This document shows, piece by piece, positions 437 through 45,376 of a stretch of DNA of 64,000 nt. Each line of letters begins with the position of its first letter. The first letter of the stretch is position 1. A program made the translations under genes and the position numbers. The DNA is from Octopus sinensis (taxonomy: Eukaryota): the NCBI RefSeq assembly GCF_006345805.1, contig NC_042999.1, forward strand, positions 71,920,001 through 71,984,000, in the 5' to 3' direction. Under the pieces are notes generated by a model. It was not told the origin of the DNA. It did no database searches and saw nothing but the letters and a program-made list of their open reading frames with translations.

Positions 437-478
437 ATAAACCTGATGAATGCGTAACGCATGAAAGTACTAGTTTAT
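437..478 (+). ncRNA. Minimal type-I hammerhead ribozyme (PLE-type)
   Basis: ATAAAC-CTGATGA-ATGCG-TAA-CGCAT-GAAA-GTAC-TA-GTTTAT: perfect 6-bp stem I, intact core, 5-bp stem II, palindromic stem III (AGTACT), CUA cleavage triplet. Confidence 0.85.
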
Positions 479-675
479 TTCAATAATGTAAAAAATAAAA
501 CGTGAAGATCAGACTAAGTTGGAATTTCATTGATTAATATATGCATCAACAAACAGGTATGGGAGATGAACCCACATCACCCAAGGAATCGGCTGAGTGT
601 TTTACCGTTCAGTTAAACGGCCCGCTGATACATCATACACTGATGTATAGGTTATTGAACAACCACGTGTGTGTG

Positions 676-898
676 TATATATAAACAGACTTACATTTGT
701 TTTTTATTAGAAGCGTCGAATGTGCATTGTACGATACAAACAAGTAGATGATGGCTGTTTGTTGAATTCTTCCACGTTGTAAGTGTAATTTACCCATTAT
801 TTCTGCTGCGTTCGAAATTATATTCCCTTCTTGATCGTACCGTATAACACACGTTTTGACGATTCTAACAAAAACAAATGTAAGTTTGTTTATATATA
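676..898. mobile_element. MITE-like element with ~55-bp imperfect TIRs in a TA context
   Basis: Left TATATATAAACAGACTTACATTTGTTTTTTATTAGAAGCGTC is the near reverse complement of right GACGATTCTAACAAAAACAAATGTAAGTTTGTTTATATATA. Confidence 0.65.
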
Positions 899-927
899 CA
901 TATGTAGTGGTTCAATAAGCTATTTAG

Positions 928-1516
928 ATACTGGAAAAGGGATAAGTATTTGCGAAGGGAACCTACTTTTCATCGACAACTGTAATTGTCATACGCTGAT
1001 GACGGGTCAATATCCAGAAACTCGAGTCCGTGTGTATCATAAGTTGAAGACGGGAAGGATGGCTTCCCTTTGCAAATACTGATAGGGCACAGAAAGTGTG
1101 TCTAAAGCCAGCTGGAGGAGGTGTCCTCCTGGGGCTACAAACTACAGTAGCATCCACCATTAGGGGTTAGCCATATTTAAATGGCAAATATACGTCACGA
1201 TGTGTTGCAGCTACTGTTTATAACTAGCTCTAAGATTTATTATTGCTTGATTACACCTTTTCGATATCAGTGTCTTTACAATACTGGAAAAGGGATAAGT
1301 ATTTGCGAAGGGAACCTACTTTTCATCGACAACTGTGATTGTCACATGCCGATGACGGGCAATAATGTAAAAAATAATGGCTTCCCTTTGTAAATACTGA
1401 TAGGGCACTGAAAGGGTGTCTAAAGCCAGCTGGAGGAGGTGTCCTCCTGGGGCTACAAACTACAGTAGCATCCACCATTAGGGGTTAGCCATATTTAAAT
1501 GGCAAATATACGTCAC
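928..1516 (+). repeat. Partial tandem duplication (unit ~353 bp) of an HHR-bearing repeat (PLE pLTR or retrozyme-like)
   Basis: 928-1198 is repeated nearly identically at 1281-1516. The second copy has lost the 3' half of the hammerhead. Confidence 0.85.
990..1034 (+). ncRNA. Minimal type-I hammerhead ribozyme with GUC site
   Basis: CATACG-CTGATGA-CGGGT-CAAT-ATCCA-GAAA-CTCGAG-TC-CGTGTG: 6-bp stem I (one G-U), intact core, palindromic stem III ACTCGAGT, GUC triplet. Confidence 0.85.
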
Positions 1517-41970: not shown

Positions 41971-42688
41971 TATCAGCATAATTATTAATATATATATATA
42001 TATATATATATATATATATATATATGTGTGTGTGTGTGTGTGTGTGTGTGTGTGTGTGTGTGTGTGTGTGTGTATTATGTCTATGTAAATAATGATACAA
42101 ACACATATACAACCATTCATACGTGCGAATGGACATGTATAGATATATCTACCTATTTACATATACATAAATATATACACACACACATACACACACACAC
42201 GCACACACACACGCACACACACACACACACACACACACACCAACACACACACACACATATATATATATATATACATGCACTTATATCGCTAGGATGCTGT
42301 CAATAATGATTTAATAAGGAATATGCGCGAAAGATTCGATCATAGGCCAATTACTTAACCAGCTGATACTTTGTTTCTATTGTGGTTGAAGAGTCTCCTA
42401 GAGGTAATCTCATATTTATGAGGGCCTATATATTATTCAAATGATAGGTATCAGATTAGATTCACTCTTTGTTCAATATCTAAATACCAATTACTCTATA
42501 TATTTACCTTGAATAAACTGACAATACAAATATATTCAAGAACCGCTTAATGTTTGTCAATCTCGCTGTTGCCAGTCATGAAATCTATAATTAACTTACA
42601 CGCCTTTTTTTCTCCGTGTTTCAAATCTATCTTTCCTGTATCTCTGATGTGTGTGTATCATATATATATATATATATATATATATATA

Positions 42689-43124
42689 TATATATATAGG
42701 CTTATGTATGTGTGTTGTGTATGTTTGGCGGGATGTACGCTTTGAAATTGTATGGAATACAATCTCGTAATGTATTTTCCCTTGATTGATGCATATATTG
42801 CGTATATTTGCCACCGTGCTTTTGATGGTTGCAAAACGGATGGATGTGTCGTATTAGCATATACATATACACACATATATATGTATATATATATATATAT
42901 ATATGTGTGTGTGTGTGTGTGTGTGTGTGTGTGTGCGTGTGTGTGTATGTATATGCTTATACGACACATCCATCCGTTTTGCAACCATCAAAAGCACGGT
43001 GGCAAATATACGCAATATATGCATCAATCAAGGGAAAATACATTACGAGATTGTATTCCATACAATTTCAAAGCGTACATCCCGCCAAACATACACAACA
43101 CACATACATAAGCCTATATATATA
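42689..43124. repeat. Near-perfect 179-bp inverted duplication around a (TA)n/(TG)n spacer
   Basis: 42689-42867 versus 42946-43124, one mismatch seen. Both arms bounded by (TA)n. Confidence 0.92.
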
Positions 43125-44690
43125 GGTGAGAAAGTTGGTGTGTGAAAGCACGTGGTTGAATATATAGAAAATAGTAAAAGGTGAAAAAACTACAGAAGGC
43201 TTGTTTTAAAAGGTTAAAAAATATATTTGAGTCATTATGTCAGAAGAATGTTATAAAACTTTTTTCATAGTGACATAGTTTTTGAAGAAATAACCGGTTT
43301 CGTGTTAACTTTTAAATTTCTCAAAACATCGTGTTATGTCTTCGTTATGAAGTGTAAAGTAGAGTTCCAGGTAAGGGGAGGTAATAAGTGATTTATTCCG
43401 GTGTAAGGGAGATAATCGCTTTATATTTCTTGCCCCTTTTATTTAAAGGGGTGAGTTTCTCTGTATAAGAATGTTAGAGTGGTTAAGTTTGGGCTTATAT
43501 TTTTCAATGAAGAATGTTTCCTTGTTTAGTCTAATTTGTGTTGGTGTTCCAATAGCACATTGATAAAATGGAAAGATTAAAAATTGTGGTCGTTGTTGCT
43601 TTGCGCATTTCTCAATATACTCACTAAAGGGTATCATTCTGTATTCTGGGAATGCAATCTATTGTCGATGCAGTGTGCATCTATGTCTGAGTGATAGTCC
43701 CGTGGACCCCCTCTCTCAATACATAAGAGAGAATTGGAAAAGATTCCTGGACGATTGTTTTATACTCTGGAATGAAAACACAGATAAACTCCTAAAATTC
43801 AAAATCCTATTGAACAGCATCAACCCAAATATACAGTTCACAATGGAATACAACCAAAAGGAGTTTCCATTCTTAGATATACTAATTTAAAAAATTAACC
43901 TTAAAATAGAAACAGAAATTTTTTACAAAGCCACCGACGCCAAACAATACCTACTTTTTGATTCATCTTCAGTAGTGAAACTGGTTGATGCTTCTGCTAG
44001 TCTCAATTTTCTGCAAAATTCTGTCAAAATCCTCTCAAAAGGGCTCAAATTTACGCCAACTCCACGCAGAGCCAACTTAAATGAAATCAAGGATAATATA
44101 ACAGAATTTTGCAGAAAATTAAGACTAGCAGAAGCATCAACCAGTTTCAATACTGAAGATGAATCACTAGTCAAGAACAAAAGTGAACACATCCCCCACA
44201 GAGGAAGAACTAAAGATATTGACGAATTCTGCAGCCACATTGAGAACTTTCCCTACCATACTATACATAAACAGACAGTTAACTCAAATTTTAACACTTC
44301 ACAATGGAAGGAACTGATAGAACTTCAAAATGATGAAGATATAACCATTAAGGAAGCAGACAAGGGAAGTGCAGTTGTAATAATGGATACATCATACTAT
44401 AGAAATCTTGTAATTTCCTTGCTTGATGACAATCAACATTATGAAAAAATCACCAACTACACCCCGCAAAAAATAATGAAAACTCTATCTTCACTAATTA
44501 AAACCCATGAAAAGGAACTAATAACCACAGAGATTGACTTTCTAACAAACTTTAAATGCAAGCCTAGCCTCATCTATGGTCTGCCAAAATTCATAAAAGC
44601 CAAATTATAAATGAAACCATTAAAAACCACCAAAGACATACATACACACACCTAACCCGGGGGACCTAAAACTATATAAATTAAAACTCT
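43125..44690. mobile_element. Scrambled Penelope-like element: inverted GIY-YIG/3' end (-), RT core (+), inverted linker, N-terminal part (+)
   Basis: Minus 43443-43700: IFPFYQC..RLNKETFFIEKYKPKLN. Plus 43700-43960: WKRFLDDCF, FPFLDI, YKATDAKQYL. Plus 44025-44610: LSKGLKFTPTP, KEADKGSAVV, YGLPK. Confidence 0.88.
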
Positions 44691-45312
44691 CCTACACCTT
44701 TTTATTTATATGTTTGTGCCATTGCTAAGTAAAAAATTGTTTGGTATGAGAATAAATATTTTTCAAAATTTAAAAACGACTGCACGATTTAGATTCAGGT
44801 ACACTTTCAAATCCCAAAACAAACTCTCCCATAGTTTTGTCTGCGAGGGAATACACTTCTTTCTACACACACACACGCGCGCGCAGGCACAGACACACAC
44901 ACACACACACACACACACACACACACACACACACACACGCACACACACACACACACATAAATATATATTACATAGAGACATAAATCAAGAAATGGAGCCA
45001 AACGCAGGTGTTATTCAAGTCTTTATACATGTGATATATGTTTCTAAGAAAACATTGATATTATTCCGGAGGAAATAAAATGAGGTTAAACAATGCAATC
45101 ATCTCGCCAGAGAAAAAGAGAGAAACAAAACACTTCAATAAGCCATTTTAACCGAATGCGGTTACCGCGTATGTGATAAAGTGTATAGTATTTATACACA
45201 GAGAGGTGACCCTTTACAGGATGCCTTACATGCTAGAGAGGACAGACAAACCTAAAACACAAAGAAAATGTATTCCAAATAGAATGAAACCAAGAATTAT
45301 TTATAGTTAATT

Positions 45313-45376
45313 CCAAACTCGAGTATCTGTATTAATGAACAAATAAATTAATTAGTCATTTGTACTTCATCAGTGG
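45313..45376 (-). ncRNA. Degenerate hammerhead motif (GAAA changed to GATA)
   Basis: Minus: CCA-CTGATGA-AGTAC...TACA-GATA-CTCGAG-TT-TGG, palindromic ACTCGAGT. Confidence 0.45.

Follow-up and report, generated by a model that had tools for sequence, protein, structure and literature searches.

Among described hammerhead ribozymes, the closest to the motifs considered here are the minimal hammerheads of Penelope-like elements (PLEs) reported by Cervera and De la Peña (2014, PMC4209133), among whose mollusc hosts Lottia and Crassostrea are named. The present analysis concerns eleven sites in a 64,000-nucleotide stretch of the Octopus sinensis genome (assembly GCF_006345805.1, contig NC_042999.1, forward-strand positions 71,920,001 to 71,984,000; hereafter the window), and these very probably represent, to judge from the sequence, intact and decayed type I hammerheads of eight repeat families, three of them tied to PLEs and five likely to be PLE ends or derivatives, with a stem III that likely pairs two copies into an active double hammerhead. 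With the PLE hammerheads as described in PMC4209133 they share the type I order, an extra nucleotide after A9, a short stem I, palindromic positions 15.2–16.2 plus loop 3, a U3-A8 core variant and the dimer model, as well as the presence of many heterogeneous families in one genome, mostly as solo copies, with tandem pairs around an open reading frame (ORF) and opposite-strand pairs 100–700 bp apart. They differ from that description in a stem III that is often 8 nt and up to 12 nt long, in a stem II of up to about 75 nt, and in an estimated 45,000–84,000 intact-looking motifs, more than the 4,000–9,000 minimal motifs given there for coelacanth and Xenopus.

Three further groups of hammerheads and one group of retroelements bear comparison. 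The small PLE variants of Lünse, Weinberg and Breaker, as summarised in a review (PMC6765202), are likewise of type I, with a very short palindromic stem III and a tandem layout proposed to supply the partner. The repeat-type hammerheads of Perreault et al. (2011, PMC3088659) resemble the octopus motifs in the palindromic stem/loop III as a dimer device and in the U3-A8 and U4C variants; as presented there they are not tied to PLEs. The metazoan retrozymes without long terminal repeats (non-LTR; PMC7229834) are also of type I and very high in copy number, with weak monomers that cleave better as dimers, but they are described as short head-to-tail repeats with canonical stems and loop 1–loop 2 contacts, in contrast to the dispersed ends, inverted partial copies and reverse transcriptase (RT)/GIY-YIG ORFs found here. 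On the side of the elements, the endonuclease-containing (EN+) PLE clades Neptune and Nematis (PMC8557442) have, like the octopus elements, one ORF that joins RT, a Cys-rich linker and, at the C terminus, GIY-YIG; both occur as partial tandem copies and as inverted 5′-truncated ones, with a short tail at one end and with microsatellites as targets. Published work already covers the motif class, its link to PLEs, the palindrome in stem III, the heterogeneity of the families, the pairs in inverted orientation and the dimer model. Among the papers listed by the literature searches none counts these motifs in a cephalopod or tests dimers between families, although Lünse et al., Arkhipova et al. 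(2017) or supplements may contain either.

The window has 34% GC and many microsatellites, and its contig is of chromosome scale in a genome of 2.72 Gb. A preliminary description, made from the sequence alone, had credited it with about eleven hammerhead motifs of unrelated sequence. All eleven are present and were recovered by an independent homology census, which added a weak twelfth remnant at 45038–45114 (Table 1); the motifs are real, but they are copies from eight repeat families and not eleven independent occurrences. A strict descriptor, which asks for CUGANGA, a stem II, GAAA, a palindrome in stem III, UH and a stem I of at least 3 bp, matches six window loci, with core starts at +443, +996, −29859, +29917, −31548 and +31995. 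The dinucleotide-shuffled control proposed earlier gave a mean of 0.005 strict matches over 200 block shuffles, none of which reached six. The motif at 28595 fits the palindrome descriptor once a U4C core is allowed, which raises the number of passing copies to seven of eleven; 29460 fits only with stem III unconstrained, and 8366, 31159 and 45313 fail every descriptor in their present form but can be aligned to families, spread over the genome, in which most copies have the hammerhead form.

Table 1. Hammerhead motifs and adjoining PLE fragments in the window (window coordinates)
Feature	Position	Strand	Basis and remarks
Family A hammerhead, intact	437..478	+	passes strict scan; AGTACT at 466-471, predicted cut after 472
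Family B hammerhead	990..1034	+	passes strict scan; stem III ACTCGAGT at 1020-1027; canonical U4 in this copy
Family G hammerhead	8366..8409	+	stem III AGATTT; stems I and II weakened in window copy
Family E minimal hammerhead	28594..28628	-	U4C core, stem III ACGT, U17
Family C hammerhead, diverged	29460..29502	+	stem III ACATTTGT; 86% identical to family C
Family C hammerhead, inverted partial copy (arm 29724-29887)	29821..29863	-	passes strict scan; stem III ACAATTGT
Family C hammerhead, 237-nt unit (29889-30125) within (TA)n	29913..29955	+	passes strict scan; stem III ACAATTGT
Family H hammerhead	31159..31207	+	A-run erodes stem III; family form ACAGCTGT in 10/14 other copies
Family D hammerhead, long stem II	31475..31552	-	passes strict scan; stem III ACATATGT
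Family D hammerhead, adjacent inverted partial copy (31853-32106)	31991..32068	+	passes strict scan
Weak remnant	45038..45114	-	73% to sample family with long stem II
Family F hammerhead	45313..45380	-	stem III ACTCGAGT; the window copy has a damaged core, GATA for GAAA
Broken PLE RT and GIY-YIG fragments	45512..46397	+	tblastn with PLE proteins, ORF list; adjoin family F motif, opposite strand

Several details of the preliminary description could be settled at the level of the families. Stems I and II, said to stay paired although the families differ, are 3–7 bp long in all eight family representatives and covary in one related lineage, and the palindrome AGTACT reported for 437 is the intact stem III of that motif, kept in 13 of 19 other family A copies. 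At 28595, on the other hand, the reported AACGTT takes in core nucleotide A14, the in-register stem III being ACGT with U17, and the supposed erosion at 8366 is the family norm, since AGATTT, self-complementary through G.U pairs only, occurs in 17 of 19 aligned rows (one of which duplicates the window copy). The eroded state of 31159 was correctly recognised. The motifs at 29460, 29821 and 29913 do belong to one family, in which 29460 is a diverged, older copy, and those at 31475 and 31991 to another; 29821/29913 and 31475/31991 each occupy the arms of a near-perfect inverted repeat (164-nt arms, 100% complementary, and 254-nt arms, 99%, respectively), and the 31475 motif forms the 3′ end of a 5′-truncated PLE on the minus strand (about 31368–31852). 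The family B majority has the U4C core, with CCGATGA in 16 of 20 other copies and the palindrome kept in 18 of 20; the U4C core is likewise in the majority among the closest copies of family E (14 of 18). First-look genome candidates, which are lower bounds and not copy numbers, amount to 680, 2852, 1040, 1684, 4284, 134, 1486 and 1737 for families A to H.

That the motifs had escaped annotation holds for Rfam, which gave no match in the window at the gathering threshold, no hammerhead family in 400–1100 or 31400–32090 at E values up to 10, and no hammerhead among the best 150 of 201 weak matches. Genome-wide values below come from a sample of the chromosome-scale contigs, made up of 120 tiles, each 10 kb long and placed at a round coordinate chosen in advance (1,199,600 called bases; unplaced contigs left out). 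Scans for type II and III hammerheads returned nothing in the window and one match in the sample, against 0–3 in shuffles; A3-U8 and A4/G4 core variants did not rise above shuffle level, and a control core gave no matches. A G3-C8 match at −48943 of the window was dropped, its stem III being only AT.

The self-complementarity of stem III is general and covaries, which fits the published dimer model. With stem III left unconstrained in the descriptor, 13 of 17 sample matches were fully self-complementary (nine perfectly, four with G.U pairs), compared with 1 of 15 in 20 shuffles, and in the window seven of the eight families have perfect palindromes, family G having one with G.U. One lineage (L260–L269) comprises seven distinct homologous motifs, of which three have A-U, three G-C and one G.U as the third pair of stem III, while stems I and II covary with 98% of cells paired and 4 of 14 pairs changed on both sides; the seven rows are related, and the shuffle counts are not probabilities. 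In a monomer the covarying third pair would close a 2-nt loop.

The tie to PLEs, claimed at the outset, is borne out for families A, D and G, which are connected with PLE proteins and RT/GIY-YIG terminal repeats. Locus L257 is a full-length family D element, in which the motif is followed by an 842-aa ORF with a YRDD RT motif, a Cys-rich linker and a GIY-YIG-type end, and then, 4769 nt downstream, by a same-strand motif with the same palindrome. The other long YRDD-type ORFs all (10/10) have a same-strand motif 1.1–1.6 kb 3′ of the ORF, and the motif lies in sense orientation within the 3′ terminal repeat, 0.4–2 kb behind the RT/GIY-YIG ORF. Besides L257, same-strand tandem partners occur in the full-length insertions L255/L256, L263 (4630 nt) and L266 (4290 nt), and truncated family D copies carry an inverted partial copy beside their 5′ end. 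The YRDD-type protein of family D may be Nematis-like. Close named homologues of one element protein come from Argonauta only. In 6 of 15 family A loci, sequence homologous to the PLE C-terminal/GIY-YIG part lies upstream of the motif on its own strand, in 2 of 11 family G loci (L222, L224) a PLE ORF end is so placed, and a motif related to family G lies 3′ of long PLE ORFs in L281, L283 and L286. Behind five long YLDD-type ORFs the descriptor found nothing, and reading their 3′ ends by eye revealed U3-A8 motifs in L270, L272 and L273.

For the remaining families the evidence is of another kind. The 20 family C loci (L001–L020) all show a unit about 250 nt long, whose fixed 5′ end lies roughly 30–45 nt upstream of the core. 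The copies are 97–100% identical and sit in (TA)n targets, all but one of the 20 loci have an inverted partial copy next to the unit, and its final 165 nt are 77% similar to the end repeat of the full-length PLE in L273. An RT/GIY-YIG fragment downstream of the family C copy in L001 was judged to be a separate insertion. Inverted partial copies and (TA)n targets match PLE structure (PMC8557442). A PLE origin is also proposed for families B, E, F and H, and families B, C, E, F and H are likely ends or short derivatives of PLEs.

Several observations weigh against this assignment and against the pairing proposed for stem III. The 842-aa protein matches no RT or GIY-YIG family in Pfam and no solved structure, its identity resting on motifs and homologues, of which 1 of the 120 listed carries PF00078 and 1 of 120 a GIY-YIG name. 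A same-strand PLE ORF was found upstream of families B, E, F and H in 0/15, 0/24, 0/11 and 0/11 loci within 1.5-kb flanks, and the link of family C to PLEs is only a 77% similar end. A young YVDD-type PLE family has a non-palindromic stem III, AGAACT, and an altered core; when two strands are folded together, the designed dimer pairs are favoured for only four of eight homodimers (C, D, F and H); and in most copies of families B and E the core is U4C, a change reported to lower activity in vitro (PMC3088659).

The likeliest alternative, tentative and somewhat unlikely in our judgement, is that families B, C, E, F and H are not ends of coding PLEs but non-autonomous elements of a kind similar to short interspersed elements or retrozymes. 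The fixed 5′ end and constant length of family C (about 250 nt, 20/20 loci) would suit such elements, as would the want of a linked ORF in the loci of B, E, F and H; for family C, too, no same-strand upstream ORF appeared within the 1.5-kb flanks, and an upstream walk in family E reached none. Since the loci reach only 1.5 kb, and the 3′ untranslated region of family D alone is 2 kb, ORFs can nevertheless lie beyond them. The inverted partial copies are moreover of PLE type and unlike the retrozyme head-to-tail arrays of about 300 bp described in PMC7229834: looked for as repeats of 200–400 bp lacking an ORF, such arrays were not seen for the window families, which are dispersed as solo or inverted copies, four tandem copies occurring in sample tile L188.

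If the motifs are indeed PLE ends acting in pairs, the published proposal of dimer cleavage in a tandem PLE layout (PMC4209133; summarised in PMC6765202) can be extended to the octopus elements, the steps of transcript pairing and cleavage being carried over from work on other animals. In the read-through transcript of a partial-tandem insertion, the two same-strand palindromes would pair and extend helix III, and the paired double hammerhead would cleave after UH, releasing a unit-length RNA. From hammerhead geometry, A15.1 of one copy would pair with U16.1 of the other, so that stem I must also form between copies and the choice of partner would depend on stem I and stem III jointly. An inverted partner, being antisense, would form a long hairpin rather than a dimer. 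Most genomic copies are solo 5′-truncated ends or members of inverted pairs, and most of them, those of the window included, are therefore likely to be inert passengers; the only same-strand pair in the window is 29460 with 29913, and the latter is an arm of the 164-nt perfect inverted repeat.

It may also be asked whether the motifs are cut at all in the animal. They may only rarely be cleaved in vivo and simply ride on PLE ends, the RNA that is copied back usually being uncut, a view that we consider rather unlikely, less so than those that follow. In each of the 20 family C loci the motif is complete, with 28–45 nt upstream of the core, so that their template was uncut at the predicted site; weak-core variants are abundant, activity in vitro is reported as low (PMC4209133), and hammerheads have been suggested to parasitise PLEs (PMC8557442). 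That these copies run across the predicted cut site, starting at a fixed 5′ end just upstream, points, however, to uncut or multimeric templates alike, since tandem or circular templates would also give such copies, and the core, the stems and the palindromy are kept and covary across very different families, which needs structural selection in active lineages. Contigs from four sequencing runs presumed to be of RNA cover the family D end; since they reveal neither strand nor ends nor cleavage, they are not counted as evidence.

The preliminary description had further suggested that the palindrome acts as a family-specific dimerisation code. In the form of a recognition code, palindrome alone or with stem I, kept distinct by selection to avoid cross-cleavage, this appears improbable. 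It was examined over 29 clusters, namely 32 less four doubtful ones (20, 21, 24, 31) plus family F. Stem III matches fully in just 18 of 406 between-cluster pairs, of which four also have both cross stems I of at least 3 bp, and the eight window families have seven different stem III sequences. Families B and F, correctly noted earlier to carry the same palindrome at 990 and 45313 (ACTCGAGT, in family F by column majority), are not homologous and match only there, and their cross stems I are 2 and 0 bp, so that stem I would separate what stem III does not. Such sharing by unrelated families nonetheless speaks against the palindrome by itself as a code: identical palindromes occur in 14 of 406 cluster pairs against 3.7 expected from uniform choice (some of the sharing clusters are related, and the 14 pairs are not independent events), and 25 of the 29 palindromes begin with AC. 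In the covarying lineage, a G.U intermediate pairs with both palindrome forms, and the palindrome changes through it. Stems I and III together would, on the geometric model, isolate most families. Stem I matches are not avoided among pairs with matching stem III (4 of 18, compared with 12 of 406 overall, some pairs being related), and the isolation of families therefore has the look of a by-product of divergence, families that diverge independently being expected to become incompatible.

Still less probable is the view that the longer stem III forms of 8–12 nt fold as hairpins and cut as monomers, with the palindrome a by-product. One family D copy does have a three-way junction with a 2-bp stem III as its minimum-energy monomer, but the other eight of the nine window copies folded show no monomer hammerhead, and no z-score falls below −1.5, none being significant. 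Stem III hairpins in the monomer are predicted at +2.4 to +5.6 kcal/mol or are unable to form, as is the case for ACGT, in contrast to −3.9 to −15.2 kcal/mol for the dimer duplexes, and a hairpin needs no complementary centre, yet the centres are complementary and covary. Chance matching in AT-rich, microsatellite-rich DNA has a negligible likelihood, for although the descriptor is short and 2–4 of 37 sample matches may be false, none of the 200 window shuffles reached the observed count, the control core gave nothing, and the homology census found no copies in three shuffled samples against 88 in the real one.

The second quantitative claim, a very large genomic population, is upheld, though not the typical density of one motif per 6 kb, the window lying at the rich end. 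Canonical cores with a perfect palindrome number 20 in the sample, one per 60 kb, which extrapolates to about 45,000 genome-wide (95% Poisson interval 28,000–70,000); the window has six where 1.07 would be expected. Adding G.U pairs and U4C, U3-A8 and G3-C8 cores raises the sample count to 37, one per 32 kb, or about 84,000 (59,000–116,000); these 37 are clumped, with five in one tile, and shuffles give 0–1 per core type and 0–2 per set of scans. The homology census, made with 99 motif copies and limited to 29 library families, finds 88 copies in the sample, one per 13.6 kb or about 200,000 in the genome with remnants included (bootstrap 147,000–258,000), and family E is the most frequent, its 20 of 88 copies extrapolating to about 45,000. 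The 12 copies that the census finds in the window are a count reached by 2.4% of resampled 64-kb sets; the window is about 2.5 times as rich as the genome sample when remnants are counted and six times by the strict measure. Of the 88 sampled copies, only 10 are accompanied within 6 kb by a relative on the same strand, whereas for 20 a relative in inverted orientation lies no more than 1.5 kb away. For comparison, canonical hammerheads are put at up to 120,000 in axolotl (PMC7229834), the giant squid annotation lists 235 Rfam hammerheads (PMC6962438), and the words 'hammerhead' and 'ribozyme' are absent from the main text of a 2026 octopus repeat annotation (PMC13282606).

Some further features were seen in passing. 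In tile L188 (6416–8026), four tandem copies of a motif with a 12-nt stem III stand about 488 nt apart next to an inverted copy, a retrozyme-like layout that is the best natural case for cis dimers. The young YVDD-type PLE family (L281:5868–5915, L283, L286) has its G-related motif with A9 changed to C, and a swapped 3-8 pair characterises several U3-A8 families and one G3-C8 motif with a 7-bp stem I (L107:9034 on the minus strand; L107:8748, L137:2543, L185:6327, L270, L272, L273, L279, L285, L287). A single family D RT piece used as genome query retrieved 11,978 candidates, many with open frames of more than 700 aa. At window positions 30381–30440 (+) the core pieces stand in a non-standard order, GAAAC, then GUA, then CUGACGA, the segments before the core being complementary to those after it; with one 85% homologue in sample tile L209, this may be a permuted hammerhead. 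The identifiable long ORFs of the window are retroelement fragments: pieces of broken PLE ORFs, belonging to at least three types, cluster at 43786–48514 and 22860–23216, and a non-LTR retrotransposon at 34280–36909 (−) has a 608-aa RT frame (Pfam RVT_1, E 1.9e-28), with a zinc-finger/endonuclease-like frame downstream and a partial duplicate at 37248–37762. An inverted repeat around a microsatellite at 42689–43124 (187-nt arms, 99% complementary) is without a hammerhead.

What the octopus adds to the known systems is the count: an octopod genome with about 45,000–84,000 intact-looking motifs and about 200,000 in total, to which Rfam is blind, is one of the larger reported loads. It also offers natural test pairs for cross-family pairing, namely B with F, which share stem III but not stem I, and the A-U, G.U and G-C versions of the palindrome within one lineage. 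As a speculation to which we give little credence, stem I and stem III might serve jointly as an address in two parts, by which dozens of PLE families residing in one genome are prevented from cutting one another, 402 of 406 cluster pairs being incompatible in the two stems together, while solo copies might act in trans on the full-length RNAs of the family to which they belong, cutting or blocking them. If this were true, the tens of thousands of dispersed motifs would constitute a family-specific control layer on retrotransposition.

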